A stretch of DNA of 64,000 bases from Candidatus Levyibacteriota bacterium (GTDB taxonomy: Bacteria; Patescibacteriota; Microgenomatia; Levybacterales; UBA12049): NCBI GenBank assembly GCA_030651475.1, contig JAUSEW010000027.1, positions 41,553 to 105,552 of the forward strand. Direction: 5' to 3'. Position 1 is the stretch's first letter. Each line of letters opens with the position of its first letter. Below are positions 31,546-64,000 of this stretch, in pieces. The position numbers and the translations under genes were made by a program. The notes under the pieces were generated by a model. That model ran no database searches and was not told the DNA's origin. It worked only from the letters and a program-made list of their open reading frames with translations.

Positions 31546-31546
31546 A

Positions 31547-33036: not shown

Positions 33037-33044
33037 CTTTAAGT

Positions 33045-33989: not shown

Positions 33990-34062
33990 GTTAGTATTGT
34001 AACAAATTGAACGCTCGTGGTCTATTGCAAACTAGTTGTTATTGCATTAAAATAAAGCCTAC
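33990..34062. promoter_or_regulatory. Divergent intergenic region; candidate promoters for 33045..33989(-) and 34063..35274(+)
   Basis: 73-bp AT-rich gap between divergent genes. Confidence 0.25.
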
Positions 34063-37453: not shown

Positions 37454-37457
37454 ACGC

Positions 37458-40165: not shown

Positions 40166-40231
40166 AGATTCCTGGTATTCAGTAAACCACTTTTTTGTCT
40201 TCTTTAGCGATAAAGATTAAGATTACGTTTT

Positions 40232-42077: not shown

Positions 42078-42879
42078 AGGTATTGCCCAAATAAATCATG
42101 TAGTCACCAAACACTGTTGGGTAGTGCTGCATTTCCGAATCCCATCCTTTTTTAGAAAGTGGAATTTTAAAATCAGTCCTAGTCCAGTTTTCTAAGTCAG
42201 TTGAGTATGCGTATCCAATTCTATAGTTGGCCTTATCCCAATCCCTATAAGTAAAATACATGTGGTACTTTCCATCTCTGTAATGGACATCTGGTCCTGC
42301 CTGACACTCGTTTTCTGGTCCTTCAATTAATAGTTTGCCATTAAGAGCAATTTTGTAAACTGGTTTATGGGTGTTTTTGTACTTTAACCACTTTGTACCG
42401 CTTATGTAAAACAAATACCATTTATTATTAAAATGTCTAATCTTTGGTCCACCTTTAAGATATGGCGAATCAATGCTATCTGTTAAAATGGGTCCTTCGC
42501 CAACTTTTGTGAAATGTTCTCCATCTCCTATAGCTTTGCCAATAGCGATGGTAAAAGGGATTGAACCGTGCGGACGTGTCCAACCAGCATAGTACATTAA
42601 ATAATCTTTACCATCTTTGATGACTGACACTGGATAAGTACCATACTCATCAAAGGTTCCAGGCTTACCTAGTGGCAGAAGCGGTCCTTTATTAACCCTT
42701 AGAATCTTCCAATCTTCATCAAAATCAGCATAGCCCGCTACACTTACCGGATCGTTATCTTTTTGGTGTCTGTGGGTAAAATAGACTCTAACAAAACCAT
42801 CCATCTGTATGACAGAAGGGGCTTGAGCATAATCCAAACCATAATCTTGTGGTCTAAAAATTCTCCCTAATTTTTTCAT
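42043..42879 (-). CDS. Five-bladed beta-propeller protein of the GH43/GH32/GH130 superfamily (glycosidase or glycoside-phosphorylase-like)
   Basis: FRPQDY...APSVIQMDGFVRVYFTHR and repeated aromatic/Gly-rich blade-like segments (YLMYYAGW, WYLFYISG, YHMYFTY). The family assignment is tentative. Confidence 0.4.
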   Translation of the reverse strand: MKKLGRIFRPQDYGLDYAQAPSVIQMDGFVRVYFTHRHQKDNDPVSVAGYADFDEDWKILRVNKGPLLPLGKPGTFDEYGTYPVSVIKDGKDYLMYYAGWTRPHGSIPFTIAIGKAIGDGEHFTKVGEGPILTDSIDSPYLKGGPKIRHFNNKWYLFYISGTKWLKYKNTHKPVYKIALNGKLLIEGPENECQAGPDVHYRDGKYHMYFTYRDWDKANYRIGYAYSTDLENWTRTDFKIPLSKKGWDSEMQHYPTVFGDYMIYLGNTYGKYGFGLILL

Positions 42880-43835
42880 GTTGTCACCCCTTTAACAATT
42901 TTAATTATTGAATCCTGTTCCTTATTGGCTAGTTCATAATATAAAGGTAAGCACAAGGCCAGCTTGGCCATATTTTCTGCCAGCGGACAGCTTTGGTTTC
43001 CAAAGATATTGTTTAATGATGGATAAAAGTATCTTCTTGGGAAGATGCCATGCTTATTAAGCGCTTCAATAATCCTTGTGGGATCGGAAGTACACATTAA
43101 AGGATAATAACTCACATCCTTATAATTTGTGCCAAATGCATCATTGTATCTATCAACTAGCTTTTGATACTTTGCAACCACCTTGTCTATATCTTGTAAA
43201 TTACATAGTCCCATTGCCGCGTGGAATTCAGACATTTTAGCGTTTATTCCTACCCCCTGAAAAGCATATTCACTCTTATAGCCAAAATTTCTCATCCATC
43301 TTGCTTTTTCAGCTATTTCATCGTTATTGGTTACAACCGCACCCCCTTCTGCTGTCTGAAATATCTTAGTTGCGTGGAATGAAACGATGGACACATCCCC
43401 ATAATTCATAATTGATTTACCTTTAACTTTGACTGCAAAGGCATGAGAAGCATCGTAAATAACAGGTCTTGCTTTAATCATTTGGGGTATGCCGTAGGTG
43501 TGGGTTACTAAGGCCGGACCCTTGAATTCCTCGTCTAAATCAACAAACTTGGGCGTTATACCTAGCCACATTGGAGCAGAAATAGTTGCAATAAAACTAA
43601 AGGGGGAAACATATATCTCTTTTTTAACATCCAGTGCTTTTAGAGCGATTTCGATTGCCGAAGTGCCATTAGATACACAAACTACGTGTCTTACGCCCCA
43701 ATAGGCTTTTAATTTATTTTCCAACTCCTGAACGAGATTTCCATCATTGGTTAACCAATTAGTCTTCCATATCTTTTTAAGATATTTATTATACTCTATT
43801 AGAGGCGGTAAATAAGTCCTAGAAACAAAGATCAT
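42876..43835 (-). CDS. DegT/DnrJ/EryC1-family PLP-dependent sugar aminotransferase (compact, 319 aa)
   Basis: VSIVSFHATKIFQTAEGGAVVT with Lys present. Confidence 0.75.
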   Translation of the reverse strand: MIFVSRTYLPPLIEYNKYLKKIWKTNWLTNDGNLVQELENKLKAYWGVRHVVCVSNGTSAIEIALKALDVKKEIYVSPFSFIATISAPMWLGITPKFVDLDEEFKGPALVTHTYGIPQMIKARPVIYDASHAFAVKVKGKSIMNYGDVSIVSFHATKIFQTAEGGAVVTNNDEIAEKARWMRNFGYKSEYAFQGVGINAKMSEFHAAMGLCNLQDIDKVVAKYQKLVDRYNDAFGTNYKDVSYYPLMCTSDPTRIIEALNKHGIFPRRYFYPSLNNIFGNQSCPLAENMAKLALCLPLYYELANKEQDSIIKIVKGVTT

Positions 43836-44004
43836 ATTTATCTAAAAAATTTGAAATTCATTCGCTCTTTTATCACACAATCCTAACACACCGATTGTCC
43901 AATTGCAATTCAGTATTTATTAATATTATAATGTGAACTAACATTGCGTCGTAGTTTCGCAATTAAGTTAAAAATAAAAGCCCAAGCAAAATTGTACTAA
44001 TTTT
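43836..44004. promoter_or_regulatory. Largest intergenic gap (169 bp), divergent, with a TATTATAAT element; candidate promoters for the N-formyl-sugar operon (-) and the long + strand operon (44005..63432)
   Basis: attaatattataatgtga read directly. It sits at the head of about 19 kb of co-directional, mostly overlapping genes. Confidence 0.35.
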
Positions 44005-45009
44005 ATGATTAAATGGCCAAAAGTATCACTTGCCCTATTTACCTTAAATGGGGGTGAAGGCGTAAGGAGGTGCTTGGAATCAGTTAGAAAACAAGTATAC
44101 CCAAAAGATAAAATTGAAATTATCGTAATCGATAATAATTCTACAGATGACAGTGTAGACATAGCCAAAAAATATACAAATAAAATAGTTGTAAACAGTA
44201 GGGATGGTTATTTGAATCGAGCAGAGTCGATGAGAATGGCGACTGGCGACTTCGTTTTTATGATACTTGAACAGGATATTGAACTTAGAAGTAAGTATTT
44301 TCTTCAAAAGATGATTAGTCCATTAATTGAAGACGAAAGATTGGTTGCAAGTTTTACAAGGGAGTATCCCAAAAAAGATCAGCCTTGGGTTACAAGATTT
44401 ATCTCTTATAATCCTGCTCAGTGCGATCCCCTTTTCGAATATTTAACACCATCAATTAAAAGCACAATTGTTGAAAAAAAACAAAATTATTTTATCTGTA
44501 AATTTATTGAAGGTAAAATTCCTCCAGTAACGCATATGTTTTTTAGGATTTCTGCTCTTAAAAAATCTGGCGTTTGGAATCAGAAAAGAGATGCCGATCA
44601 CGATACTGTAATAAAACTTATAGAGTATGGATATAATTTATTTGCTTATGTTCCTGATGCAGGCGATTATCATTATCATGCCAAAAATTTAAAAGAACTC
44701 ATCGGGAAAAGAATAAGAAATTTAAATAGACATTATTTTATCTATCATGAAACTACCAAGTATAAATGGGTTGATGTAAACAATAAACAAGAAGTAATAA
44801 AAATGATAATATGGGTTCTTTACGCCAACTCATTAATTTTTCCAGCAATAAGAGGAATTATTAGATTTATAAAATATAAGGATTGGGCATTATTGCTCGA
44901 ACCTGTTATTGCTGTTTCCGTAACAGATGTGCTTATTTGGACATTTCTAAGAAACAAAGCGGGAAGAAAAATAATTATCGATTCACTAAGATCTCTTATG
45001 TTAAAATAA
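44005..45009 (+). CDS. Glycosyltransferase, GT2 family
   Basis: VSLALFTLNGGEG...IEIIVIDNNSTDDS motifs. Confidence 0.65.
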   Translation: MIKWPKVSLALFTLNGGEGVRRCLESVRKQVYPKDKIEIIVIDNNSTDDSVDIAKKYTNKIVVNSRDGYLNRAESMRMATGDFVFMILEQDIELRSKYFLQKMISPLIEDERLVASFTREYPKKDQPWVTRFISYNPAQCDPLFEYLTPSIKSTIVEKKQNYFICKFIEGKIPPVTHMFFRISALKKSGVWNQKRDADHDTVIKLIEYGYNLFAYVPDAGDYHYHAKNLKELIGKRIRNLNRHYFIYHETTKYKWVDVNNKQEVIKMIIWVLYANSLIFPAIRGIIRFIKYKDWALLLEPVIAVSVTDVLIWTFLRNKAGRKIIIDSLRSLMLK

Positions 45010-45010
45010 C

Positions 45011-46735
45011 ATGAAAGTACTAGGGATTCATTTTCAGAGTCATGATACGTCTGTTGCTCTAGTCGAAAATGGCAATATTCTTTACGCCGCTAGCAACGAG
45101 CGTTTTTCAAGAAGAAAAATGGATGCTAATCCTCCTTTGGATGCTTTGAAAGATTGTCTTTCATACTCAAAGACAAAGCCACAAGATATCGATAAGGTTG
45201 TTTTCGTTGGGGATCCGTTTCCGTATTCTTACGTGGGGAGATTAAAAGAATTATCATGGCCATTTATATATACAAAAGGACGTTATCTTTTATGGTGGAG
45301 AAAACCGCATCTTATTTTATGGGAGTTATTTATTGCAACAGGGATTCCTAGCTTTTTATACAGAGAGTTACTTCCACGCATTTTAATTAGGGGAAAACTT
45401 AATGGATTTAAAGGAAAATATTCATATGTGCATCACCATTTTGCTCACATGTATTCTGCTTATTACACATCCGGTTGGAAAGACTGTCTTGTTATGTGCA
45501 GTGAAGGTTCTGGATTTTCTGAAACAATGTCTATCTATCATGTAAGGAAGGGGGAATGGATAAAAGTGGTAGAAAATTATTTACCTCATTCGGCAGGCAA
45601 ATTTTATGAACTGGTTACTGTTATGTTAGGTTTTAATGTATTGAGGCACCCAGGGAAAATCACCGGACTAGCAGCATATGGTAATCCAAACACAGTATAT
45701 AATGCAGTAAAAGATCTTTTATCGGTTAACGGGTTAAAGCTTAAGCTCAATTACGAAAAGTATTTAAAGTGGGGAATTAACTATTCCCTTACGAAGACTT
45801 TACCGAAAGAGTTAAGGGGAAATAGAAGGGAAGATATTGCTGCTGCATTTCAAAAGAGACTTGAAGAATGCATAGTCGAAATTGTCAAAAAAGCAGTAGA
45901 AAAAACCGGAGAAAAGAAGCTTTCGTTTGCGGGTGGGGTGGCGGCCAATGTTAAGCTTAACCAAAGACTGCATGAAGAAGCGGGAATAAATGAAATTTAT
46001 ATACATCAGGCAATGGGGGACGATGGCTTAGCTCTGGGTGCAGCATTACACACAGCGTTTTTAAATGGATTTCAAATAAAGCAATCGGATAATGTTTATT
46101 TCGGACCGGATTTTAGCGAACAAGAAATTAAAAAGAGTTTAAATAAATTTAATTTAAAATTTAGTAAAGAAAATAACATAGAGATAAAAATAGCAAAGCT
46201 TTTAGCAGAAAGTAAAATTGTGGCCAGGTTTAATGGAAGAATGGAATATGGGCCCAGAGCATTGGGCAATAGATCCATTCTTTACAAAACGACAGACAGA
46301 GGGGTTAACAATTGGCTTAATAAACGTCTTAAAAAAAGATCGGATTTTATGCCTTTTGCGCCCGTGACTCTTGATTCGTTCGCAGATAAATGCTTCAAAA
46401 ACCTTAAAGGAGCTGAATATGCTGCTCGATTTATGACAATTACTTTCGATGTCACGTCTTATATGAAAAAGCTTTCCCCTGCTGTTGTTCATGTGGATGG
46501 TACCGCAAGACCGCAGATTATAAGAAGTAAAGATAACCCCAGTTATTATAAACTACTTGAGGAATACTACAAACTAACCGGTATACCGTCTCTTATTAAC
46601 ACAAGTTTCAATATGCATGAAGACCCAATAGTTTGTAGTCCGGATGATGCAATAGAATCATTTTTAAGCGGAAGTCTAGATTATTTGGCAATTGGCAATT
46701 ATTTAGTAAGTTATGAGCAAAATAATAAAAAATAG
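45011..46735 (+). CDS. Carbamoyltransferase (NodU/CmcH/NovN/TobZ family)
   Basis: N-terminus VLGIHFQSHDTSVALVENGNILYAASNERFSRRK is the canonical Carbam_trans_N signature. HHHFAHMYSAYY metal-binding His cluster. About 570 aa, typical for the family. Confidence 0.85.
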   Translation: MKVLGIHFQSHDTSVALVENGNILYAASNERFSRRKMDANPPLDALKDCLSYSKTKPQDIDKVVFVGDPFPYSYVGRLKELSWPFIYTKGRYLLWWRKPHLILWELFIATGIPSFLYRELLPRILIRGKLNGFKGKYSYVHHHFAHMYSAYYTSGWKDCLVMCSEGSGFSETMSIYHVRKGEWIKVVENYLPHSAGKFYELVTVMLGFNVLRHPGKITGLAAYGNPNTVYNAVKDLLSVNGLKLKLNYEKYLKWGINYSLTKTLPKELRGNRREDIAAAFQKRLEECIVEIVKKAVEKTGEKKLSFAGGVAANVKLNQRLHEEAGINEIYIHQAMGDDGLALGAALHTAFLNGFQIKQSDNVYFGPDFSEQEIKKSLNKFNLKFSKENNIEIKIAKLLAESKIVARFNGRMEYGPRALGNRSILYKTTDRGVNNWLNKRLKKRSDFMPFAPVTLDSFADKCFKNLKGAEYAARFMTITFDVTSYMKKLSPAVVHVDGTARPQIIRSKDNPSYYKLLEEYYKLTGIPSLINTSFNMHEDPIVCSPDDAIESFLSGSLDYLAIGNYLVSYEQNNKK

Positions 46736-49700
46736 CAAATTTTTTGAAATATTGTTTATTTTTTTAATATCCCTTACTCCTTTTCTTTGGCTTCGAAATG
46801 GGCAAGTGATACTGGGGCATGATTCGGGTTTTCGTTTAGACTCGTTTACATATTGGCTCAATCTTCTTTACTCTTGGAACCCAATTCCCAATTTTGGTTC
46901 TGATTGGTCAATATTCAAAGGATTTCTCATCACCCAGCTTCCTGAAGCTTTATTTACGACACTAACGGGATCATTAGGTGATGGTCAACTGCTAACGTTT
47001 ATTTTCTGGTTTTTCGCTATAGGACTTTCTATGTATATTTTCGTTAACTCCTTCCATAAAGACAGTAAATTTTGGTTTTTAAGAATATTTGCAAGTACGT
47101 TTTATATGTATAATTTTTTTCTTTTGCAGGCGTGGTTTATCGCGGAGAGAGCGAAATTTTCGATTTACATAGCATTACCATTATGTGTGCTTTTATTATA
47201 TAAAACATTAACAAAGCAGATATCCTTATGGAAGGGTCTTTTCTTCTTTTCTCTACTTTTATTCTTCTTTAATGCCGGAGGCGCGCCAACATTCCTTGGC
47301 TCCTTTTTTGTTTCTTTTGCTGCAACGCTTATATATTTTGCTATAAGAAACTTTCAAAAAGGCGGTATACGTGAGCTTACATATGCTCTTAAGGTTGGTA
47401 TTTTGTTTCTTGTGGGATTCATTATAGTAAATGCCTATTGGATTCTTCCCCAAGCCTATTTGATGTTTCATAATTATAGTTCTTCGTTGGTTGCAAGCGG
47501 AGGGATAAACGGAATTATAGGATGGGAAGCAACAATAAGTAAAAACGCGAGTTTAATAAATTTGCTGCGCTTACAGGGAATACCTGATTGGTACAAAAAT
47601 CCAATCCATCCTTATTCATCATTTTATCTAGAAAATGTTTTTCTTATTGGGTTTAGTTTTTTATTCCCGATCATATTGGTAGGATCACTTATTTTGATTG
47701 CTGCTAAGGGATGGAAAAATCACAATAGGCAACTTCTACTGTTAATATTGGCTTTGTTTCTTATCGGCATTATTTTTACAGCAGGTTCGCATCCGCCAAC
47801 TGGTTTCTTATACGTATTACTCATTAAATATATACCGGTTTTTCCTATTTTCAGATCTTCATTCTACAAATTTGGTGTTACTTTTTGGTTTCCAGCTATT
47901 TTTCTTATTTCGTATGGACTTTATGCTATCCTTACGAATTACATAAAGAATAAAAAATTGTACTTTTTATGTTCAGCCTTAGCTGTTGTTGCTATTCTTG
48001 CTTTTCACTTTCCTTACTTTAGCGCCAATTTCTTTACATGGAATAAGCCATATTCTACGAGAGTAAAAATTCCAAGCTATGTAGCCACGATGTCTAATTA
48101 CATAAATACTCTTCCTTCATCCACGCGAATACTTTTGCTGCCAAGCCTTGATCCGGTTTTTCATGCAGATATAACTGATTGGAATTTCTGGAGCTTGGAT
48201 TTGCTGCCTCGTTTAACAACAAATAAATCTATAGTTGCCGATAGTGCCGGGGCTCCTCCGATTATAGGAAATATGTATAGAGCGATTGAGCTTGGAAACG
48301 AAGAACAGTTTTTACGTTTAGCATACATAAGCGGTGTTAATAAGATACTCTGGAGAGATGATGCCGTTTATAGCAACGGAACGAAAGTCAATGCGCAACT
48401 GCATTATAGAGAAAATACAATTAAAAGCTTTCATTCCCTACGACTTTTAAAGCAAGAGGGAAAGTGGAGATTATACGATATTGCGTTTGCCAAATTGCCT
48501 ATGGATTTTTTTGTTCCTGATAATATTAGCGTAAATTCAAAATACAATTCATACCAAGGACAGCTTATGGCAGAAAAATCAACAACAGGCTCTGCTTTAT
48601 TAGAAGACGCGAAATTTTCCTTGGGTAATGTTGTTAATAAGCAATATATTCAGGCGAATTGCGTATTGTGCGAAATGCACGCTTTCGAAAATATTGCAGC
48701 ACGGATTGATGTTCCTCAATTACGCCTTTTGCCGAATTCAAAACTCTATTTTTTAGTGAAGGCTAAAGAATATATAGGTCTACTAAGGACTAAGGGTTAC
48801 GAAGCTAGGGCGTTAACGGACATGATTTATTCATACAGAAGAATAGCTGAAATAAATAATTTATTAAGGAAAAACAATGATGATCATAATTTTAACCAAG
48901 AAGTTTTTTCAAACATTTCTCGTTTCAAAAAAAATATAAATAATGCTCTGGCAGAGGCGAATCTATTGTCTGTAGAGAAACGAAACGATCTTCTTATAAG
49001 AATATATGCATACCTTTACCACGAAAATAGCAGTACTAATTCATTTATCCATAATAGTCAGGCTAACGCAGCCATTGACAATCTTGAGTTATTTATTGTC
49101 CAAAAAATGAACATGTTGGAGAATACAATATGGATGACTAAAGATAAAACAGATAAGAAATATTTTGTTGATATTCCATTCGCCGGAAATTACTCTTTAG
49201 TATTTACTAACATAGGTCAAGTAACGCCAAGCGAAATATATCTTGACGGAGAGAGAATAAATGCTCAAGACGCCCGTATGGAAAAGGGGACCCATAAATT
49301 AGAAGTTATATATTCTCCGCTTGAAAATATGTTAGTTAAGCCAGCCGATGGGGAACTCTCTTTCAATATTCCCAACGGGGAGAAGGAGAGATTTACTCTT
49401 AAGCCGCTTTCCCGCGCAAATTTATACACAGTGTCATTTGATTATCGTTTTAATAGCGGTATTCCGCCAAATATAAAAATTACTCAAGATGCGATTGAAA
49501 GCGATAATAAGTACGAGCTTACACGGAAAGACGGAGAGCTATTGAGCGCAGAAGGAACATGGAATAGATATGAATATATTGTGGGTGGCGATCCTAATTC
49601 GAAAAATTTCTCCTTAGATTTCCTTATTTGCTGCAAGAACGGAAAAAATTCTAACTTTACAATTAAAAATTTAAATGTGGCTCAATTGTTCGAACCGGGA

Positions 49701-50111
49701 GTTAATTTTGTCAGTACGAATACAAATGTTCAAGATACTCGGGTTGGGAATATCTCCTATAGACAGCTTGACCCTACGAAATATATTGTTTCCGTTCATA
49801 ACGCAGCTACTCCATATGTCTTGTCGTCTAGGATCGGATACGATGCTGGTTGGAAAGCTCTTGTTCTTGATTCATCCAAATCGCAAAATAATAGCAGTTT
49901 TGCTACTGCTTTATTCCAGAATGGGCTACAACAAATTACTCCTTATAAGACAAACACTTTTGCCAACGCTTGGTATATAAATAAAAAAGGGAGTTATGAT
50001 GTGCTTATAGAATATGAGCCGCAGCGATTCTTTTACATTGGCGGGTTAATTTCTCTGATTTCTTTCCCGCTTTTGGCATCACTATTTATTTTTAAAGGAA
50101 AAAAACAATGA
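46713..50111 (+). CDS. Large (1132 aa) YfhO-like GT-C membrane protein: N-terminal multi-TM domain, ~600 aa extracytoplasmic beta-rich domain, C-terminal TM anchor
   Basis: About 13 TM helices in the first ~470 aa. The C-terminal GYDAGWKALVLDSS...KGSYDVLIEYEP...TM motif is shared with 1..933 and 50482..52401. Confidence 0.45.
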   Translation: MSKIIKNSKFFEILFIFLISLTPFLWLRNGQVILGHDSGFRLDSFTYWLNLLYSWNPIPNFGSDWSIFKGFLITQLPEALFTTLTGSLGDGQLLTFIFWFFAIGLSMYIFVNSFHKDSKFWFLRIFASTFYMYNFFLLQAWFIAERAKFSIYIALPLCVLLLYKTLTKQISLWKGLFFFSLLLFFFNAGGAPTFLGSFFVSFAATLIYFAIRNFQKGGIRELTYALKVGILFLVGFIIVNAYWILPQAYLMFHNYSSSLVASGGINGIIGWEATISKNASLINLLRLQGIPDWYKNPIHPYSSFYLENVFLIGFSFLFPIILVGSLILIAAKGWKNHNRQLLLLILALFLIGIIFTAGSHPPTGFLYVLLIKYIPVFPIFRSSFYKFGVTFWFPAIFLISYGLYAILTNYIKNKKLYFLCSALAVVAILAFHFPYFSANFFTWNKPYSTRVKIPSYVATMSNYINTLPSSTRILLLPSLDPVFHADITDWNFWSLDLLPRLTTNKSIVADSAGAPPIIGNMYRAIELGNEEQFLRLAYISGVNKILWRDDAVYSNGTKVNAQLHYRENTIKSFHSLRLLKQEGKWRLYDIAFAKLPMDFFVPDNISVNSKYNSYQGQLMAEKSTTGSALLEDAKFSLGNVVNKQYIQANCVLCEMHAFENIAARIDVPQLRLLPNSKLYFLVKAKEYIGLLRTKGYEARALTDMIYSYRRIAEINNLLRKNNDDHNFNQEVFSNISRFKKNINNALAEANLLSVEKRNDLLIRIYAYLYHENSSTNSFIHNSQANAAIDNLELFIVQKMNMLENTIWMTKDKTDKKYFVDIPFAGNYSLVFTNIGQVTPSEIYLDGERINAQDARMEKGTHKLEVIYSPLENMLVKPADGELSFNIPNGEKERFTLKPLSRANLYTVSFDYRFNSGIPPNIKITQDAIESDNKYELTRKDGELLSAEGTWNRYEYIVGGDPNSKNFSLDFLICCKNGKNSNFTIKNLNVAQLFEPGVNFVSTNTNVQDTRVGNISYRQLDPTKYIVSVHNAATPYVLSSRIGYDAGWKALVLDSSKSQNNSSFATALFQNGLQQITPYKTNTFANAWYINKKGSYDVLIEYEPQRFFYIGGLISLISFPLLASLFIFKGKKQ

Positions 50112-50485
50112 AAAGATTACTAAATTTATTTTTAAATTTGTCTAAGAAAACGGAAAAAGTTACTTCTGAATATCAGGGGAGACTTTTATTCTTGATGATT
50201 ATCCTTTTAACTCTAACTGTTTTTGCAAATTTACCTTATTTTAATATTCTACTAACAATCTCTAACATTATATGGATTATGATTTTGGTTTCTTTATTCA
50301 TTTTTCGAATACGGATGAAAAATTTATTATTGATAGCGATTATTCTTATTGGAACTGCTCTAATCAGCGTTTTAGCTGATAATCGAGAAGTGGCGGAAAT
50401 TTTAGGAAATTCGATTTACCTTATCTTAATCATAGTTTTTACTTCCAATTTCGTTGAATATTTAAAAGAAATTAAAAAATCATGA
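50108..50485 (+). CDS. Small polytopic membrane protein (3-4 TM), unknown function
   Basis: 125 aa, mostly hydrophobic. ATGA-coupled between the two YfhO-like genes. Confidence 0.35.
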   Translation: MKRLLNLFLNLSKKTEKVTSEYQGRLLFLMIILLTLTVFANLPYFNILLTISNIIWIMILVSLFIFRIRMKNLLLIAIILIGTALISVLADNREVAEILGNSIYLILIIVFTSNFVEYLKEIKKS

Positions 50486-52401
50486 TGTTTAATTTTCCTT
50501 TCCTTGATTGGTTTTCTCAGAAAATAATCGTGGGCGGAGATTGGCGGTTTTTTTGGCCGGAAAACATTGGTGACTTCGTTACCTTTCCGACCGCCTGGGA
50601 TGCAAGTCTAAATACAGGTTTAGGTTCTCCATCTTTTAGCCTCATGTGGATAAATACTTATCTCAATTTTACTGCCGTATTTAGCAAGCTTGGTCTATCA
50701 TGGAATTTAATCGGTTTGTTATTTTGGATGCTGCCTGCCATAGCTCTGTCCTTTTTTTCCGCTTTTTATTGTTTCAAATATCTTTTTCCAAAAAGAACAA
50801 AATATGGGATTCTGGCTGGGATTATTTATCTCTTTAACACGTATTTCCTGATGGTATTTACCGGAGGCCAATTGGGTATCTCTCTGGCTTATTCCATCGC
50901 TCCTTTTGTATTTTTAACTTTCACAAAAAGCATAGATAATCCGACTTTTAGAAAAAGTTTGTTTTCTTCTTTGGTACTCGGATTACAAATGCTTTTTGAT
51001 CCAAGGTTGGTATATATAACCTTCATAGCAATATTCATTTATTGGCTATTTAACATAAAAAATATGAAACAGGTAATTTTTGCTTTCGTTCTTCCTTTTC
51101 TAATAGGATTCATGCTCCATAGCTATTGGATTGTTCCTCTAATCTTGACAAGATCATCTTCCATACAGGCGGGCTTTACTAGCTTGTTGGGGTTAAGATT
51201 TTTTAGTTTTTCTGATTTCTCACACTCTTTATCTTTTCTTCATCCAAATTGGCCGGAAAATATATTCGGTAAAGTATATTTCCTGAAACCTGAATTTTTA
51301 TTACTTCCAATACTGGCTTTTTCATCATTACTTTTTATTAAGAAAGAGACTAAGGAAAAGAAAAAAAATATATTATTTTTTGCAATTTTAGGATTACTTG
51401 GAGCATTTTTGGCAAAGGGAGCAAGCGATCCATTTGGTATAACATATGAGTTTGCGTTTCGATATATTCCTGGATTTGTTGCGTTTAGGGATCCTACGAA
51501 ATTCTATTTGCTGATATCTTTGTCTTACTCAATGCTTATACCCTTTGCGATCTTGTCTTTATCTAATTGGATTTCTTTACGATTCAAAATGAAAGGTTAT
51601 ATATCAAACGTCCTGTTAGTGGTTTCCATTTCTTACGTTTTGGTTTTGGCAAGTCCTGTTCTCGTGAGGCAATTTAATCGAATAGCTACGCCCCATATGA
51701 TACCTAATGACTACGTAGAATTAAAGAATTTCTTAGGCATCCAGCCTCAATTCTTTCGCACCCTTTGGATTCCTTCCATGCAAAGATTTGGTTTTTTTTC
51801 CAATAATCATCCTGCAATTTCGGGCATTAATAATTTTAACGCAAACGCACCTAAGGATTTTGATACATTTCTTAGTGAGGCCGCGGTTCAATACGTAATA
51901 GTACCGTACGATTCGGAAAAGGAGTTATTCTTAAAAGACAGGAAATATGATGAGAAGCAGTATGATCAAACGGTAAAGTCGTTAAGAAATATAGAATGGC
52001 TAAAGAAAATAGAGGGTTTTGGGAAAATTGCGGTTTTTGAAAACTCAAATTATAAAGATCATTTTTGGAGCCGTAACTCAAACCTTAAAATTAATTATAA
52101 GTATATTAATTCCACAAAATATTATGTTGATATTGAAAATTCCAAAAAAGGAGATGTTTTGGTATTTTCGGAGGGGTTTGATAAAAATTGGCAAGCGCAA
52201 ATTGACAGTAGTTTGATAAATTCAAAGCCCTATGATAAGCTCTATAATAGCTTTGTTTTGTCAAAGGGCGGAAGCTACACGGTTGAAGTTGTTTATTCTG
52301 TCCAGAAGTGGGTAAATATGGGATTAATTGTGAGTTTTGCTACCTTAACGATTTTGATAGGCAGTTTGCTATATATACAAATTAAAAATAAATATGATTA
52401 G
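50482..52401 (+). CDS. YfhO-like GT-C membrane protein (639 aa)
   Basis: Multi-TM N-terminal domain. C-terminal FSEGFDKNWQAQIDSS...KGGSYTVEVVYS...TM motif paralogous to 46713..50111 and 1..933. Confidence 0.45.
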   Translation: MMFNFPFLDWFSQKIIVGGDWRFFWPENIGDFVTFPTAWDASLNTGLGSPSFSLMWINTYLNFTAVFSKLGLSWNLIGLLFWMLPAIALSFFSAFYCFKYLFPKRTKYGILAGIIYLFNTYFLMVFTGGQLGISLAYSIAPFVFLTFTKSIDNPTFRKSLFSSLVLGLQMLFDPRLVYITFIAIFIYWLFNIKNMKQVIFAFVLPFLIGFMLHSYWIVPLILTRSSSIQAGFTSLLGLRFFSFSDFSHSLSFLHPNWPENIFGKVYFLKPEFLLLPILAFSSLLFIKKETKEKKKNILFFAILGLLGAFLAKGASDPFGITYEFAFRYIPGFVAFRDPTKFYLLISLSYSMLIPFAILSLSNWISLRFKMKGYISNVLLVVSISYVLVLASPVLVRQFNRIATPHMIPNDYVELKNFLGIQPQFFRTLWIPSMQRFGFFSNNHPAISGINNFNANAPKDFDTFLSEAAVQYVIVPYDSEKELFLKDRKYDEKQYDQTVKSLRNIEWLKKIEGFGKIAVFENSNYKDHFWSRNSNLKINYKYINSTKYYVDIENSKKGDVLVFSEGFDKNWQAQIDSSLINSKPYDKLYNSFVLSKGGSYTVEVVYSVQKWVNMGLIVSFATLTILIGSLLYIQIKNKYD

Positions 52402-53320
52402 TTTTGTTATTCCGGTTTTTAATGAGGAGGAAAGTCTTACCCCTTTTTATGAAGATTTAAAGTCTTCCCTTAAGGACAGGAAGGAATATGAGATTGTTTT
52501 TATTGACGATGGGTCAACTGATAAATCATTGCGAATATTAAAAGATCTGCATAGCAAGAATTCGAATATAAGAATTTTTTCGTTTAGAAAAAATCAAGGT
52601 AAGTCAGAAGCTTTAACATTAGGTTTTGGTAAAGCAAAAGGAGATTGTATAGTTACACTGGATGCGGATTTGCAGGATAGGCCTTCCGAAGCCCCAAAAC
52701 TTATAGAAAAGCTTAAAGAAGAAGATTTTGATCTTGCTTGCGGATGGAGAAAGAATAGGAAAGATCCATTGCGTAAAGTTATCTCTTCCAAATTCTTTAA
52801 CTTTCTTGCTTCGTTTTTCTGGGGATTAAAACTTCATGATTACAATTGCGGACTGAAGGCATACGCAAAAGATGCTGCCAAAAGCTTAAGGCTTTATGGC
52901 GGGATGCACAGATTTATTCCTCTTCTTGTCCACGAGCAGGGATTTAAGGTTTGTGAAATGCCAGTTAACCATGACGAAAGGAAATACGGTAAGTCAAAAT
53001 ACGGTTTTTCCAAGCTTTGGAATGATTTACCGGATATATTCACTATGTTGTTTCTAACAAGATATAGTAAAAGACCCCTTCATTTTTTTGGTCCAATAGG
53101 ATTCATCTTTCTGACAATAGGAGGAGCGATTTTAGCATATCTCTTTGCGATTAAAATCATGGGTCAAGGCATCGGAGACAGACCATTATTGTTTCTCGGG
53201 ATGATTCTTGTTCTAAGCGGTTTCCAAGTTTTATTTACAGGATTTTTGGCAGATATAATAATAAATACTTCAAGTAAGGAAACTAAAGACTTTCCCATTA
53301 AGTATTCAAGCGAAAAATAG
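52394..53320 (+). CDS. GT2 polyprenyl-phosphate sugar synthase (GtrB/CsbB/ArnC-like) with C-terminal TM helices
   Basis: ISFVIPVFNEEESL...EIVFIDDGSTDKS...LDADLQDRPSE GT-A domain, with two C-terminal TM helices. Confidence 0.8.
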   Translation: MISFVIPVFNEEESLTPFYEDLKSSLKDRKEYEIVFIDDGSTDKSLRILKDLHSKNSNIRIFSFRKNQGKSEALTLGFGKAKGDCIVTLDADLQDRPSEAPKLIEKLKEEDFDLACGWRKNRKDPLRKVISSKFFNFLASFFWGLKLHDYNCGLKAYAKDAAKSLRLYGGMHRFIPLLVHEQGFKVCEMPVNHDERKYGKSKYGFSKLWNDLPDIFTMLFLTRYSKRPLHFFGPIGFIFLTIGGAILAYLFAIKIMGQGIGDRPLLFLGMILVLSGFQVLFTGFLADIIINTSSKETKDFPIKYSSEK

Positions 53321-53334
53321 AATTGGCATAGCAT

Positions 53335-53565
53335 ATGAAGCCGCAAGATATTGTTTTTTTTATAATTCTGGCAGTTTTGATTTGGAAAAAAGACCCTAGG
53401 CGGGCAGCTTTCGCAGGAATAATTTCTCTTATTGCCTCAATTCCGCTTTTTTCTTTTTGGGTATTTTTTACAGCAGAAAGACTTACTTGGTACGCAGCCG
53501 CATTTTTCCTCCTCTCAATCGTACTTATTGTTTTTAATTCTAAAAGCCTAAAGAATAAAGAATAA
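53335..53565 (+). CDS. Small membrane protein (2-3 TM), unknown function; GtrA-position accessory?
   Basis: 76 aa, hydrophobic. Sits immediately downstream of the GtrB-like gene. Confidence 0.3.
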   Translation: MKPQDIVFFIILAVLIWKKDPRRAAFAGIISLIASIPLFSFWVFFTAERLTWYAAAFFLLSIVLIVFNSKSLKNKE

Positions 53566-53566
53566 T

Positions 53567-54124
53567 ATGAAAATAGGAATTGACGTTTCACAGCTTGCTT
53601 TTGAGGATACTGGAGTAGCGAATTATCTTTCGAATTTAATTAAGCATTTATTAGCTACAGATAAGAAAAATCAGTATATACTGTTTTATTCATCATTGAG
53701 GAGAAAATTTCCCCACTTCGCCAAGGCTTCCCTCGACTACGCTCGGGACAAGTCGGCGGGCAAGCAAAATTTCAAAATAAAGAGTTTTAGATTTCCGCCT
53801 ATGCTTTTGGATTTACTTTGGAATAAACTTCATATGGTGCCGATAGAGTGGCTGATTGGGGATGTTGATATTTTTATAACTTCTGACTGGACAGAACCGC
53901 CAACTAGAAAAGCGAAGAAAGCTACGATTCTATACGACTTAATTGTCTATAAATATCCGAACGAAACTGATAATAAAATTGTTGAGACACAAAAAAGAAA
54001 GCTTAAGTGGGTTAAAAAAGAGTCTGACATGGTTTTTTGCATATCTGAATCAACTGCAAAAGACGCGGAAGAGGTTTTAGGCATTGATAAAAATAAATTA
54101 AGGATTATTTATCCGGGAATTTAA
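53567..54124 (+). CDS. GT4 N-terminal-domain-only ORF: truncated paralog of the downstream GT4 (possible pseudogene or split GT-B)
   Basis: MKIGIDVSQLAFEDTGVANYL... parallels MIIGIDGNEANVEKRVGIGEY... of the next gene. Ends ...RIIYPGI* exactly where the paralog continues ...VTYPGIKEEL... into its C-domain. Confidence 0.4.
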   Translation: MKIGIDVSQLAFEDTGVANYLSNLIKHLLATDKKNQYILFYSSLRRKFPHFAKASLDYARDKSAGKQNFKIKSFRFPPMLLDLLWNKLHMVPIEWLIGDVDIFITSDWTEPPTRKAKKATILYDLIVYKYPNETDNKIVETQKRKLKWVKKESDMVFCISESTAKDAEEVLGIDKNKLRIIYPGI

Positions 54125-54128
54125 CATT

Positions 54129-55268
54129 ATGATTATTGGAATAGATGGTAATGAGGCGAATGTTGAGAAAAGAGTGGGGATTGGGGAATATGCGTTCGAA
54201 CTGCTTGAGCAATTCGAGAAATTTAGAATTCAGAATTTAGAATTCAGAATTTATTTGAAAAATGAGTCAATAAACGATATGCCGAAAGAAAGAAAGGGAT
54301 GGCAATATCGTGTAATCGGGCCAAGAAAGCTTTGGACTCAATTTGGTTTACCTCTGGATTTATTTTTTCATAAACCAAGACCTGATGTTTTTTTTACGCC
54401 TACTCATTACGCGCCTCGTTTTTCTCCGGTACCAACCGTAATATCCATAATGGATTTGTCTTACGTTCACTTTCCAAAACTTTTTAAAAAATCAGACTTG
54501 TATCAGCTGAAAAATTGGACAGCTTATTCGGCAAAAAATGCGAAAAAAATCTTAACTATCAGTAAATTCAGCAAAGATGATATAATCAAAACATATCAAA
54601 TACCAGGAGATAGGGTTGTGGTTACGTATCCTGGAATTAAAGAAGAATTAGGAATTATGAATCAAGTTTACCCTGAGCAAAGTCGAAGGGAATCAAGCGA
54701 ACTTCAAAGCAAGTATGGAATTAAGGGGAAATATATTTTGTTTGTAGGAACGTTACAACCAAGAAAGAACATTATTCGTTTGATCGAAGCATTTAGTAAA
54801 ATTTCCTTAATCCTTAATCCTTTATCATTAATCATTATCGGTAAGAAGGGGTGGATGTATGAAGAAATTTTGGAAGCGCCAAAAAAGTTTAACATTGTAA
54901 ATAGAGTCAAATTCTTGGAATTCGTGTCCAACGAAGACCTTCCGTTTTTATACCAAAACGCAGAGTGTTTTGTCTTGCCTTCGCTTTATGAAGGATTTGG
55001 TCTGCCGGTTTTGGAAGCAATGAGATATGGGTGCCCTTGCGTTATTAGCAACATTAGCAGTTTGCCTGAAGCAGGCGGAGATGCGGCTTTTTATTTTGAT
55101 CCAAGTAACGCATCAGATATTGCTGCGAAAATAGAAATGGTTTTAAATGACGAAAAATTAAGAAAAGAAATGATAGAAAAAGGTTATAAACAGGTTAAAA
55201 AGTTTAGCTGGGAAAAAACAGCACAAGAGACGCTGAAGGTCTTGGAGGAAGTAGCAAGAAATGGATAG
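54129..55268 (+). CDS. Glycosyltransferase, GT4 family
   Basis: EGFGLPVLEAMRYGCPCVISN motif and full two-domain GT-B layout. Confidence 0.8.
   Translation: MIIGIDGNEANVEKRVGIGEYAFELLEQFEKFRIQNLEFRIYLKNESINDMPKERKGWQYRVIGPRKLWTQFGLPLDLFFHKPRPDVFFTPTHYAPRFSPVPTVISIMDLSYVHFPKLFKKSDLYQLKNWTAYSAKNAKKILTISKFSKDDIIKTYQIPGDRVVVTYPGIKEELGIMNQVYPEQSRRESSELQSKYGIKGKYILFVGTLQPRKNIIRLIEAFSKISLILNPLSLIIIGKKGWMYEEILEAPKKFNIVNRVKFLEFVSNEDLPFLYQNAECFVLPSLYEGFGLPVLEAMRYGCPCVISNISSLPEAGGDAAFYFDPSNASDIAAKIEMVLNDEKLRKEMIEKGYKQVKKFSWEKTAQETLKVLEEVARNG
54219..54254. repeat. About 2.5 copies of a 14-bp tandem repeat (AATTTAGAATTCAG-like) inside the GT4 CDS
   Basis: aaatttagaattca gaatttagaattca gaatttat read directly from the sequence. 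Encodes FRIQNLEFRIY. Confidence 0.7.
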
Positions 55269-55812
55269 AATAATCAGAAGAATAAATACGGTTTTACTGG
55301 AATTTGAAATTATGCTGCTTCATATCGTTGGGATTATTCCTTCGCATTGTATACGCAGATTTTTTTATAGGCTGGCGGGAATTAAAATAGGTCGTGGATC
55401 TACCATCCATACAGGAGCAAGATTTTATAATCCTGCCAACATTGAAATAGGGGAAGATTCGATAATTGGGGAAGGAGCGGTTTTGGATGGCCGTGATAAG
55501 CTAATTATAGGTAATCATGTTGATATAGCCTCGGAAGTTATGATTTACAATTCGGAACATGATTTGGCAAGCAATGATTTTCACGCCATAACAGGAAAAG
55601 TTGCGATAGGTGACTACGTTTTTATCGGGCCAAGAGCGATTATTCTTCCGGGGGTAACTATTGGTAAAGGAGCGGTTGTTGGCGCAGGAGCGGTTGTGAC
55701 GAAAAATGTTGACGAAGGCTCAATAGTTGGCGGAGTTCCGGCAAAGCCCATTGGCCTAAGAAATATAAAGGATTTAAATTATAAACTTGGCAGGGCTGCT
55801 TGGTTTAGATAA
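55261..55812 (+). CDS. Hexapeptide-repeat (LbH) acetyltransferase (WcaF/maltose O-acetyltransferase-like)
   Basis: IGNHVDIASEVMIYNSEHD...IGDYVFIGPRAIILPGVTIGKGAVVGAGAVVTKNV repeats. Confidence 0.75.
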   Translation: MDRIIRRINTVLLEFEIMLLHIVGIIPSHCIRRFFYRLAGIKIGRGSTIHTGARFYNPANIEIGEDSIIGEGAVLDGRDKLIIGNHVDIASEVMIYNSEHDLASNDFHAITGKVAIGDYVFIGPRAIILPGVTIGKGAVVGAGAVVTKNVDEGSIVGGVPAKPIGLRNIKDLNYKLGRAAWFR

Positions 55813-55827
55813 AAGATAACAAAGTAA

Positions 55828-56715
55828 ATGGTGGAATTATCAATAATTATACTTAATTACAAGACTTCAGACTTAACAATTGCCTGTCTTAAATCTATAA
55901 TTTCCAAATTCAACAAAGAGCTGGAGTTCGGTAGATTCGAAATAATAGTCGCGGATAATGGCTCCAAGGACGCTTCGGTAGAAAGTATTAAGTATTATGT
56001 ATCAAGTATTAAGTATAAAAATATTAAAATTTTAGAAAATAAAGAAAACTTGGGTTTTGCCAAAGGAATGAATAAGGCATCGCAAAACGCAAAAGGAAAA
56101 TATCTGCTATTTCTAAATTCCGACACTGAAATGCTTGATAAAGGACTTACGGACATGATTGAATTTTTGGATTCTAACAAAAAAGTTGCCATTTTAGGCG
56201 GAAAGTTTATGAATAAAGATGGTTCGCTCCAGCCATCCTGCGGAAAATTCTATACGCTTTTTAATCTTTTTCTAATGCTTATCGGCACAGAAAGGCTTGG
56301 GTTTCTGCGTGAGAGCCCATCTATTGTTAAAAAAGTTGATTGGGTAAGCGGGGGATTTATGATGGTAAAACGCGATATATTCAAAAAATTGGGTTGTTTT
56401 GACGAGAATTTCTTTATGTATATGGAAGATATGGATATTTGCTATAGAGCGAAAAAAGAAGGTTGGGATACGTATTTTTTCCCCAGAGCTTGCGTAGTTC
56501 ATAATGGGCATGGAAGCAGCAGCAGGACATTTGCTATAATTAATATATATAAGGGTATTTTGTATTTTTACAAAAAACACAACAGCTATTGGCAGTATAT
56601 TTTAGCCAGGACGTTACTTACTGCGAAGGCAATAACTGCAATCTTTTTTGGGTTCCTAACTAACAATATCTATCTTAAAAATACCTACAAAAGCGTTATA
56701 AGAATCGAGCTATGA
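55828..56715 (+). CDS. Glycosyltransferase, GT2 family
   Basis: LSIIILNYKTSDLT...EIIVADNGSKD...GFAKGMN...FLNSDTEM motifs. Confidence 0.75.
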   Translation: MVELSIIILNYKTSDLTIACLKSIISKFNKELEFGRFEIIVADNGSKDASVESIKYYVSSIKYKNIKILENKENLGFAKGMNKASQNAKGKYLLFLNSDTEMLDKGLTDMIEFLDSNKKVAILGGKFMNKDGSLQPSCGKFYTLFNLFLMLIGTERLGFLRESPSIVKKVDWVSGGFMMVKRDIFKKLGCFDENFFMYMEDMDICYRAKKEGWDTYFFPRACVVHNGHGSSSRTFAIINIYKGILYFYKKHNSYWQYILARTLLTAKAITAIFFGFLTNNIYLKNTYKSVIRIEL

Positions 56716-61339: not shown

Positions 61340-61340
61340 G

Positions 61341-63432: not shown

Positions 63433-63434
63433 GT

Positions 63435-63977: not shown

Positions 63978-64000
63978 AAATAAATTATATCATAGCTTAT

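Follow-up and report, generated by a model that had tools for sequence, protein, structure and literature searches.

In Bacillus subtilis, csbB, which encodes a GT2 polyprenyl-phosphate-sugar synthase, and yfhO, which encodes a GT-C glycosyltransferase, form a pair that glycosylates teichoic acids. Together with GtcA, these proteins make up a three-component system for glycosylation of lipoteichoic and wall teichoic acids in Bacillus, Listeria and Staphylococcus (PMC5836110, PMC8035078); in the three-component scheme in general, the GT-C partners are very diverse in sequence (PMC8035078). The pentofuranose system of Citrobacter youngae includes the GT136 enzyme ORF12, a GT-C protein that spans the membrane 11 times, has its catalytic Asp close to TM1 and binds the glycan acceptor through a C-terminal carbohydrate-binding module (CBM); it acts alongside a flippase and a synthase of the lipid-linked monosaccharide (PMC11127046). 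Acceptor-binding CBMs on GT-C enzymes have precedent in both AftD and ORF12, and the catalytic Asp follows TM1 in GT-C enzymes of solved structure (PMC11127046); in AftD the residue D41 is essential (bioRxiv 10.1101/2019.12.22.885152).

The window analyzed here comprises 64,000 nt from a Candidatus Levyibacteriota bacterium (GCA_030651475.1, contig JAUSEW010000027.1, positions 41,553–105,552, forward strand); all coordinates below are positions within it. Candidatus Levybacteria (Patescibacteria, Microgenomates; CPR) are ultra-small and uncultivated, and to our knowledge the cell envelope of Patescibacteria is almost unexplored; a literature search on GT-C enzymes of Patescibacteria/CPR returned no papers. 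Between 46713 and 53320 lie four plus-strand genes, each overlapping the next (by 4, 4 and 8 nt, in order): gene A, a gene for a 125-aa protein with four TM helices, gene B, and a gene for a 308-aa GT2. We think it rather probable that these translationally coupled genes form a module by which a cell-surface glycan is glycosylated on the extracytoplasmic side.

The product of gene A (1132 aa; 46713..50111, +) is predicted to be a membrane glycosyltransferase of GT-C type that resembles AftD and has a large outer domain; that of gene B (639 aa; 50482..52401, +) is a compact GT-C paralog. BLASTP with composition-based statistics aligns their membrane domains at 25% identity over 413 aa (E 9e-9) and their C-terminal regions (A 998–1121, B 527–625) at 27% identity over 124 aa (E 3e-7); comparison of the two family profiles by hhalign gives a probability of 99.3% (E 2.5e-20, 563 columns). 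On this sequence evidence A and B are true paralogs. Because the BLASTP and hhalign matches lie well beyond chance, the C-terminal motif that the initial annotation noted in both proteins is real, and not a compositional artefact of Lys and Ser residues. The two families have many members, all confined to Microgenomates; they are uncharacterized and stand unannotated as "hypothetical protein".

AlphaFold models of A and B (pLDDT 84) are clear GT-C folds, with the helix arrangement of the superfamily and an acidic residue in the predicted first extracytoplasmic loop. An invariant Asp lies just past the TM1 position in both families, and further motifs are common to the two (in A numbering W55, N134, P156, PDW 291–293, with PNW as a variant, and PGF..FR...K 375–386); this pattern of conservation fits an active enzyme. 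Neither A nor B of the window reaches a Pfam or NCBIfam glycosyltransferase threshold, and the A- and B-family profiles found no significant match among PDB sequences, with weak CBM matches for A 884–996 alone; the GT-C assignment therefore rests on the predicted structures and on the matches of relatives. Among 37 B-family members, those matches are confined to GT-C-type families (PTPS_related, YfhO, DUF6541 and AftD).

Protein A can be described as B plus TM1 plus an insertion of ~400 aa that holds a DUF5667 helical bundle and a CBM-like beta-sandwich. Its membrane core (aa 1–441; 46713..48035, +), delimited by DSSP of the model, hydropathy and invariant columns, has ~11 TM helices; TM1 (aa 8–25) is followed by the first outer loop with the invariant residues G35-H36-D37 and R41, of which D37 (codon 46821–46823) is the candidate catalytic Asp. 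The initial annotation had envisaged a beta-rich outer domain of ~600 aa; the model shows instead a composite of ~660 aa (about aa 442–1101), built from an alpha/beta domain (442–650), an all-helical bundle (657–805) and beta-sandwiches (814–1101). The first of these is an extracytoplasmic soluble GT-C domain (48036..48662, +) that model and hhalign place in B as well, and is closed by an invariant CxxC (C650, C653). The bundle (48681..49127, +), five long helices in the model, belongs to the insertion not found in B and resembles DUF5667: A 672–750 scores 25 bits, under the Pfam gathering cut-off of 27, and 23 of 37 A-family members match (best E 1.1e-8). Next come a beta-sandwich region (aa 814–996; 49152..49700, +) with a CBM4/9/22-like module at ~aa 884–996 that is missing from B, and the C-terminal beta-sandwich with its terminal TM helix (aa 997–1132, helix 1102–1131; 49701..50111, +), which is supported by BLASTP, model and the invariant residues W1047, N1085, W1087 and P1103.

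Protein B consists of a membrane core (aa 1–403), the alpha/beta domain (404–535), a beta-sandwich (536–607) and a terminal TM helix (608–638), and carries an invariant G19-D20 (D20 codon 50539–50541). TM1 is missing from the window's B and from its clade, and the model of the N-terminal 20 residues has pLDDT <50. In this clade, the catalytic loop would thus need to be translocated in the form of an N-terminal tail, an unusual arrangement for GT-C enzymes. These features would fit a reading in which A or B, or both, and the TM1-less clade in particular, are inactive scaffolds or pseudoenzymes. We regard this as extremely improbable: D20 and ~45 further positions do not vary among 37 diverse members of the B family, TM1-less ones included, and the family is both conserved and very large (1935 clusters at 50% identity, E≤1e-30).

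The initial annotation read the locus as a CsbB–YfhO-type module expanded to three paralogs, and set a search with the Pfam YfhO model (PF09586) as a check beforehand, naming the lack of a significant match as grounds for refutation. For the two main proteins this is the outcome: neither A nor B matches the model even at E≤1, and at E≤0.01 it is matched by none of 37 A-family and two of 37 B-family members. One of these two matches, that of P0173, was mapped: it scores 27.1 bits (gathering score 28.5) and covers model positions 756–834 of 835. The YfhO membrane (catalytic) domain is left uncovered by every mapped match, both of family members and of protein C, the product of the truncated open reading frame at 1..933. 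What is found is the YfhO-type C-terminal beta-sandwich with terminal TM helix, in the models of A and B and in the HMM matches of P0173 and protein C, which are weak but consistent.

Protein C (1..933, +; the C-terminal 310 of 544 aa) is, by Pfam and hhalign, a GT-C-clan membrane protein of the PF10131 (PTPS_related) family. Its C-terminus is a YfhO-like sandwich with a TM helix, and the part inside the window matches Pfam YfhO at 28.6 bits (model positions 757–823); the full-length sequence, taken from locus L084, scores 59 bits against PF10131 and 30.5 bits against YfhO, the latter at the YfhO end only. PF10131 is also matched by four of 37 B-family members, but not by A and B themselves. 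The initial annotation had the truncated reading frame bearing the A/B C-terminal motif. Pairwise BLASTP against A and B is not significant (E 0.3 and 0.74); at the level of family profiles, however, protein C aligns with B (hhalign probability 97%, E 1e-10, 483 columns), in an alignment that runs from the membrane domain to the terminal TM helix, C-terminal sandwich included. By profile comparison, then, protein C is a remote homolog of B and not a recent paralog, and the proposed three-paralog expansion was overstated. Protein C also differs from A and B in having no alpha/beta outer domain.

Convergent with protein C lies the gene for a second GtrB-type polyprenyl-phosphate glycosyltransferase (313 aa; 986..1927, −), which matches GtrB in the PDB (5ekp, E 1.3e-73 over aa 6–306), has two C-terminal TM helices and scores 244.7 bits against NCBIfam PgfS (cut-off 500). 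The case for a "second module" formed by this GT2 and protein C is weak, because a GtrB-like GT2 is nearby in only one of three other genomes checked; elsewhere protein C is flanked by an upstream gene of the MptA_B family and a downstream GT4 gene. The coordinates of all these reading frames, the truncated one and the convergent GT2 included, agree exactly with those annotated initially.

Comparisons to AftD give a different picture for A. The window's A does not match Pfam GT-C_AftD (PF11847; gathering score 26 bits) at E≤1; 11 of 37 A-family members do so at E≤0.01, with scores reaching 41 bits across ~520 positions of the model (P0020, 41.1 bits over 23–541 of 661; P0069, 33.1 bits), as does one of 37 B-family members (33.6 bits). 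Among structural relatives in the PDB, AftD and AftA rank first, and PMT and ArnT are also among the best. On the HMM matches of family members and on structure, A's nearest characterized relative is AftD and not YfhO, with the qualification that YfhO and AftD were ranked against each other by Pfam HMMs alone because the PDB matches include no YfhO structure.

A genuine CsbB–YfhO system with three paralogs, glycosylating teichoic acids as in Bacillus subtilis, would account for the direct coupling of a CsbB/GtrB-type GT2 to a GT-C gene, for the matches of P0173 and protein C to the YfhO end (27–30 bits), and for the homology of the B family to the PF10131/YfhO-tail family. It is nevertheless very unlikely, given that A and B lack a YfhO match, that the mapped matches of relatives miss the membrane domain, that A is closest to AftD by both HMM and structure, that protein C is primarily a PF10131 protein, and that neither teichoic-acid genes nor a GtrA/GtcA-family flippase were seen among the window's reading frames scanned with Pfam. 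What stands of the initial reading is the coupling of two paralogs to a GtrB/CsbB/ArnC-type synthase; since A and B are translationally coupled to such a synthase, the logic of three-component extracytoplasmic glycosylation is the best reading of the locus.

That synthase, the 308-aa GT2 (52394..53320, +), is a polyprenyl-phosphate glycosyltransferase of the GtrB/ArnC/CsbB type; hydropathy shows a pair of C-terminal TM helices (235–253, 265–283). It matches Pfam Glycos_transf_2 (E 4e-36) and, over its full length, ArnC (9hwj, E 7e-43, aa 2–289), GtrB sll0501 (E 2e-26) and DPMS (E 4e-18) in the PDB; the NCBIfam models ArnC and PgfS are matched below their equivalog cut-offs (ArnC 158 against 529). 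Both GT2s of the window are thus of full-length GtrB/ArnC type, as initially proposed. Of 66 species-level loci, 36 carry a close homolog (≥45% identity) downstream of B, 25 of these at a distance of no more than 1.5 kb; in the other 30, the ~6 kb that follow B contain none.

More constant than the GT2 is a tiny membrane protein (76 aa, 2–3 TM helices; 53335..53565, +), a conserved neighbor of B and the GT2: of 66 loci, 56 encode it downstream of B, 22 of them no more than 400 nt away. It has no significant match in Pfam, and none to GtrA. It is followed by a plus-strand block (53567..59870) in which Pfam identifies an N-terminal-half fragment of a GT4, a complete GT4, a hexapeptide acyltransferase and a GT2, together with a 1052-aa polytopic membrane protein; in 62 loci examined downstream of B, the GT4 is found in 45, the acyltransferase in 40 and the 1052-aa protein in 32. 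The 1052-aa protein as a further paralog of A and B was ruled out (hhalign probability 0.3%).

In many genomes the GT2 is missing beside B, whose steadier neighbors are the tiny protein, the GT4 pair and the acyltransferase, and this raises the question of whether A and B are tied to the GT2 at all. They might instead act as polymerase- or ligase-like enzymes on another lipid-linked donor, such as an oligosaccharide on polyprenyl diphosphate, and the island's Wzx-like flippase and many cytoplasmic glycosyltransferases would build a lipid-linked repeat unit. We consider this quite unlikely, as the B and GT2 genes overlap in the window and are closely linked in the 25 loci mentioned, and as the best structural relatives (AftD, AftA, PMT and ArnT) all use polyprenyl-monophosphate monosaccharide donors.

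The small membrane protein between A and B (125 aa, ~4 TM helices; 50108..50485, +) carries the conserved motifs LPYFNI and AE..GN..Y. Homologs occupy the same position at about two dozen other loci; where A is missing, the domain forms the C-terminus of 330–350-aa proteins encoded upstream of B. Pfam searches of 23 family members gave no match to GtrA (PF04138; E≤1) or to any other family, and its identification as a GtrA-family flippase was rejected; the resemblance is in size and helix number alone. A "split GT-C", in which the 125-aa protein supplies B's missing TM1 in trans, was likewise rejected, because the protein tracks the presence of A and not the loss of TM1: it is also found upstream of TM1-bearing B proteins (e.g., L012, L054, L067), and TM1-less B genes occur without it (L005, L006, L007, L014, L015, L062).

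One could imagine A, B and this four-TM domain as a glycosylation machine specific to Microgenomates, in which the domain is a new obligatory partner (a non-GtrA flippase or an adaptor presenting the acceptor) and the TM1-less B functions via a translocated N-terminal tail; we hold this to be unlikely. In that arrangement the small domain is always just upstream of B, either free-standing after A or, where there is no A, fused to an outer domain.

The surroundings of the module are rich in related functions. Across the 64 kb are encoded sugar-nucleotide modification enzymes, GT2 and GT4 enzymes, a Wzx-like flippase and other GT-C proteins: the window is a glycan island, and the module sits inside it. 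Immediately upstream, the gene for a 574-aa carbamoyltransferase (45011..46735, +; Pfam Carbam_trans_N and Carbam_trans_C) shares the last 23 nt of its 3' end with the start of A, a position kept in the closest relatives (L009 and L011). A promoter and terminator scan of 43500..56000 gave fewer sites than shuffled sequence and is uninformative.

This setting bears on the nature of the acceptor. Glycosylation of proteins (S-layer, pilin or other surface proteins) by A and B, as carried out by the Pgf system of streptococci (PgfS with PgfM1/PgfM2), PMT or PglB/AglB-type enzymes, seems an unlikely alternative: the glycan-acting AftD and AftA rank first among structural relatives, A holds a CBM-like module, NCBIfam Pgf scores all fall far under the equivalog cut-offs, and the neighboring genes resemble those of polysaccharide assembly.

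Under the favored reading of a glycan-modifying module, the 308-aa GT2 would take the sugar of a nucleotide sugar and attach it to polyprenyl (undecaprenyl) phosphate at the cytoplasmic face, as its family membership implies for GtrB/ArnC/CsbB-like enzymes. The lipid-linked sugar would then be flipped across the membrane, with the 125-aa and 76-aa proteins as candidates for this step. On the outer face A and B, with the modeled fold as guide, would transfer it to an acceptor polymer, a reaction in which D37 of A and D20 of B, invariant Asp residues in the first outer loop, would be catalytic. The AftD-type layout of A (core, soluble domain, DUF5667 bundle, CBM-like sandwich, C-terminal sandwich and anchor) suggests, by analogy, that A holds a polysaccharide acceptor. 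B is the minimal version; it probably forms another linkage or works at another site. Two modes may be considered: decoration of a finished polymer, in the style of YfhO or GtrC, or its extension and branching, in the style of AftD.

Surface glycans of Patescibacteria have a probable role in attachment to host cells, and the A and B families stand at the heart of a glycan island conserved in Levy-, Roizman- and Gottesmanbacteria. The analysis gives two large families of "hypothetical proteins" a predicted fold and a likely mechanism, extends the AftD-type layout of GT-C core, carbohydrate-binding modules and C-terminal anchor beyond Actinobacteria, and corrects the annotation lead from YfhO to AftD-like/GT-C, with A D37 and B D20 as the residues to probe.

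Comparison with known systems places the locus as follows. From ArnC/ArnT and GtrB/GtrC, which modify lipid A and O-antigen in Gram-negative bacteria, it differs in its much larger GT-C partners with extra outer domains, in that no ArnE/F or GtrA flippase was found here, and in NCBIfam scores far under the equivalog cut-offs. GT136 ORF12, compared by description and not by sequence, shares with A the 11 TM helices, the Asp near TM1 and a CBM; its system differs in having a polyprenyl phosphoribose synthase as donor synthase and a MATE protein as flippase (PMC11127046).

AftD (PDB 6W98/6WBX) shares with A the layout of GT-C core, soluble GT-C domain, CBM and C-terminal membrane segment, but sequence identity is only 10–15%. 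A has one CBM-like module against three and one C-terminal TM helix against five, and its DUF5667 bundle is not in the five-domain list of the AftD paper; no acyl-carrier-protein partner is indicated for A, and the host is a CPR bacterium rather than an actinobacterium (mycobacteria). The donor synthase beside A and B is a GT2 of GtrB/ArnC type, in place of the PRPP-based decaprenyl-phospho-arabinose pathway; this adjacency, with no UbiA-type synthase among the scanned reading frames of the window, argues against an arabinofuranose pathway, an argument that concerns the pathway and not the activity itself.

In comparison to CsbB/GtcA/YfhO, the module has two tandem GT-C paralogs with an unrelated four-TM protein between them, and no GtrA/GtcA flippase was found. 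The likenesses are a C-terminal sandwich and TM helix resembling the YfhO end in B-family members and protein C and, by analogy, a membrane-anchored GT2 for a C55-P-sugar whose gene adjoins that of a GT-C enzyme that would transfer the sugar outside. Extracytoplasmic glycosylation systems of this type are already well known, and the locus is no new kind of system.

The four consecutive genes lie on the + strand at exactly the coordinates of the initial annotation: the GT-C protein A (46713..50111, 1132 aa), a membrane protein (50108..50485, 125 aa), the second GT-C protein B (50482..52401, 639 aa) and a GT2 enzyme (52394..53320, 308 aa). They overlap successively by 4, 4 and 8 nt, and the start of A is itself overlapped by a carbamoyltransferase gene upstream. 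BLASTP aligned A and B in the membrane domain (413 aa, 25% identity, E 9e-9) and at the C-terminus (124 aa, 27% identity, E 3e-7), and the two family profiles, each of 37 homologs, align in hhalign with a probability of 99.3% (E 2.5e-20). Because both kinds of alignment are significant, the C-terminal motif common to A and B reflects homology, as first proposed, and not composition; by sequence comparison the two proteins are paralogs.

A and B had been taken for members of the YfhO family. Neither matches Pfam YfhO (PF09586), even at E<=1: the single Pfam match of A is to DUF5667, below threshold, B has no match whatsoever, and NCBIfam returned nothing useful for either. A Pfam scan of every alignment member found no YfhO in the A family (0/37), where the matches are DUF5667 (23/37), GT-C_AftD (11/37, best E 7.6e-11) and CBM_4_9 (3/37). 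B-family members match PTPS_related (4/37), YfhO (2/37), DUF6541 (2/37) and GT-C_AftD (1/37). The YfhO match that was mapped, in the homolog P0173, covers model positions 756-834 of 835 only, the last 80; the homolog P0020 matches the AftD model at 41 bits over positions 23-541 of 661. Likeness to YfhO therefore holds for the C-terminal module of sandwich plus helix, which resembles the YfhO tail, and fails for the rest of the protein. Despite that tail, a true YfhO system acting on teichoic acids is very unlikely.

Sequence profiles of A and B gave no significant match to PDB sequences, so the fold assignment rests on structural models and on the Pfam matches of relatives. The AlphaFold2 models, computed on the family alignments, are confident predictions (pLDDT 83.9 and pTM 0.78 for A; 84.4 and 0.84 for B) and show a GT-C fold in both. 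Three AftD entries head the Foldseek ranking (E 6e-15 to 6e-13), followed by an STT3-containing complex (E 8e-6), in a list that lacks YfhO, no YfhO structure being among the PDB matches; further structure values listed are STT3B 19.5, AftA 19.1, Pmt4 18.5, PglB 16.2 and ArnT 13.8.

AftD comprises a GT-C core, a soluble GT-C domain, three CBMs and a C-terminal membrane segment, with K39, D41, E251, K361 and D474 as essential residues (bioRxiv 10.1101/2019.12.22.885152), and A has this layout in reduced form. Its membrane core of ~11 helices (aa 1-441, from model, hydropathy and conservation) begins with TM1 (aa 8-25) and a first outer loop with invariant G35-H36-D37 and R41. There follow an outer alpha/beta domain (aa 442-650) with an invariant CxxC at its end, a DUF5667-like bundle of five helices (aa 657-805), beta-sandwiches that include a CBM-like module (aa 814-996), a last beta-sandwich (aa 997-1101) and a terminal TM helix (aa 1102-1131). 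The outer part of A, described initially as simply beta-rich, is thus composite in the model. B consists of a membrane core (to aa ~403, with invariant G19-D20), an alpha/beta domain (aa 404-535), a final sandwich (aa 536-607) and a terminal helix (aa 608-638); A is B plus TM1 and an insertion of ~400 aa. We favour a polysaccharide as the acceptor of A, since A carries a CBM-like module and resembles AftD; set against these features, glycosylation of proteins by A and B appears unlikely.

Both families conserve, among other positions, an Asp after the TM1 position, W55/W39, N134/N119, P156/P141, PDW/PNW and PGF..FR...K. The catalytic Asp comes after TM1 in solved GT-C enzymes (PMC11127046), and with these residues retained it is highly unlikely that one or both of A and B are inactive. 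Most of the B family has TM1 (MK..TM helix..WF..GGDW); at the B N-terminus, compared between the window (50482..50600) and loci L004-L083, the clade that includes the window copy (start M..GGDWRFFWPENI) lacks it. No in-frame upstream extension of the B ORF is possible in the window, so the loop with the invariant Asp would need translocation as an N-terminal tail. The CxxC of the A family (C650 and C653, sequence CVLC, window 48660..48671), at the junction of alpha/beta domain and helical bundle, may form a disulfide or bind a metal. DUF5667, fused into the enzyme in A, is elsewhere a separate 195-aa protein (15513..16100 (-); 36.7 bits, N-terminal TM helix), encoded directly downstream of a PMT_2-type GT-C gene (16097..18343 (-)) with a 4-nt overlap. 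In these bacteria DUF5667 may accompany GT-C enzymes repeatedly, as an accessory module.

The truncated ORF running from the window start to 933, the C-terminal part only of a protein (protein C), had been counted as a third paralog. Compared pairwise with A and with B it shows no significant similarity. A copy on a neighbouring contig (L084) encodes the full 544-aa protein C, identical to the homolog P0379 and annotated on record as '6-pyruvoyl-tetrahydropterin synthase-related protein'; it matches PF10131 (PTPS_related) at 59 bits and the YfhO tail at 30.5 bits. Its family profile aligns with that of B over 483 columns (probability 97%, E 1e-10), from the membrane domain to the C-terminal sandwich and helix, and with that of A over 46 columns only. 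The PF10131 match and the profile-level alignment place protein C in another, remotely homologous family: the relationship stands, recent paralogy does not. Convergent with the truncated ORF there is, as initially reported, a second GtrB-like GT2 (986..1927 (-), 313 aa; GtrB E 1.3e-73). In three other genomes protein C has an MptA_B-family gene and a GT4 as constant neighbours, and a GtrB-like GT2 nearby in one of the three.

Synteny was assessed over 80 species-level loci obtained with the B profile and two obtained via A homologs. Downstream of B lie a 76-aa membrane protein (56 of 66 loci), a close homolog of the 308-aa GT2 (36/66, within 1.5 kb in 25) and, among loci with a flank of at least 5.5 kb, a GT4 (45/62), a hexapeptide acyltransferase (40/62) and a 1052-aa membrane protein (32/62); a full-length A homolog lies upstream in 27 of the 69 loci with enough flank. 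These counts identify B as the constant core and A as a frequent accessory. Loci with A carry a small 4-TM protein between A and B, the 125-aa protein of the window, which defines a conserved domain with motifs LPYFNI and AE..GN..Y; in those without A, the gene upstream of B often encodes a protein of 330-350 aa that ends in the small 4-TM domain (E down to 5e-15, hmmsearch on a small local set), preceded by an N-terminal TM helix and a ~170-aa outer domain (L013:4916-5917, L040:4904-5950 and similar). No member of the small family matches GtrA or any other Pfam family. Beyond the GT2 lies a GT4 pair (53567..55268 (+)), a 185-aa ORF with the N-terminal (Glyco_transf_4) half only and then a complete GT4; as the pair is kept in most related loci, the half-GT4 is probably a functional gene and not a fragment.

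The 308-aa GT2 matches ArnC over its full length (aa 2-289, E 7e-43), then GtrB (E 2e-26) and dolichol-phosphate mannose synthase (E 4e-18), and has two C-terminal TM helices. These matches, which establish GT2 family membership, and that of the 313-aa enzyme to GtrB indicate that both are polyprenyl-phosphate glycosyltransferases; neither reaches an NCBIfam equivalog cut-off that would define its sugar. The 308-aa enzyme would place a sugar on polyprenyl phosphate in the cytoplasm, the lipid-linked sugar would cross the membrane by flipping, and A and B would pass it to a surface polymer outside, which they may either decorate or extend; flippase, sugar and acceptor are putative. Gene overlap speaks for a coupling of the GT2 to A and B, and so does synteny, which is frequent, not universal; that A and B act independently of it, as the incomplete synteny might suggest, is distinctly unlikely beside that overlap. 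The substrate of ArnC is a 4-formamido sugar. The island encodes a sugar N-formyltransferase with a WbqC-like protein (40232..41415 (-) cited) and four DegT-type aminotransferases; an N-formylated amino sugar as donor is a possible lead only.

Judged by gene content, the whole window is one surface-glycan biosynthesis island. It further encodes four PMT_2-type GT-C proteins, ~10 GT2 and seven GT4 enzymes, methyltransferases, a carbamoyltransferase, acyltransferases, epimerases/dehydratases and a Wzx-like flippase; GtrA-family and UbiA-type proteins were not seen in it. Two further unassigned polytopic proteins, of 544 aa (37458..39092 (+)) and 1052 aa (56712..59870 (+)), have no Pfam match and may be GT-C-like enzymes. 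In the former, TM1 is followed by a YQQDEW motif; the latter resembles it in its second half (27% identity, tblastn cross-hits), with a GDDFTWFRW motif. A homolog of this 544-aa protein directly precedes A in L001, L003, L054, L056, L059, L067 and L074. In all, the membrane proteins of GT-C type or GT-C-like character in window 1..64000 number nine or more, which is unusually dense for a CPR genome of ~1 Mb. Beside GtrB-type GT2 genes in these islands a split transketolase-like pair recurs, with the N half and the pyrimidine-binding/C half each encoded by a short gene of its own (1932..3103 (-), L001:1303-3104, L086:8913-9653); it suggests synthesis of branched-chain or two-carbon-extended sugars.

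Identical proteins are on deposit as Q7R31_02915 and Q7R31_02925, both 'hypothetical protein', from a Candidatus Levybacteria MAG (252,992-bp contig; Patescibacteria group, Microgenomates group). Homologs come nearly all from Levy-, Roizman- and Gottesmanbacteria and unclassified Patescibacteria, some under placeholder names. Of 1.84 billion cluster representatives scanned in full with HMMER, 1,935 match the B family at E<=1e-30 and 9,636 do so at E<=1e-3, which makes it a large family.

The kind of system is already known, and in the known three-component system the sequences of the GT-C components vary greatly (PMC8035078). The new elements are modest: fold and, by inference, function for two large unannotated Microgenomates families, a B clade without TM1, a conserved small membrane protein as a putative partner, and an AftD-like layout outside Actinobacteria.
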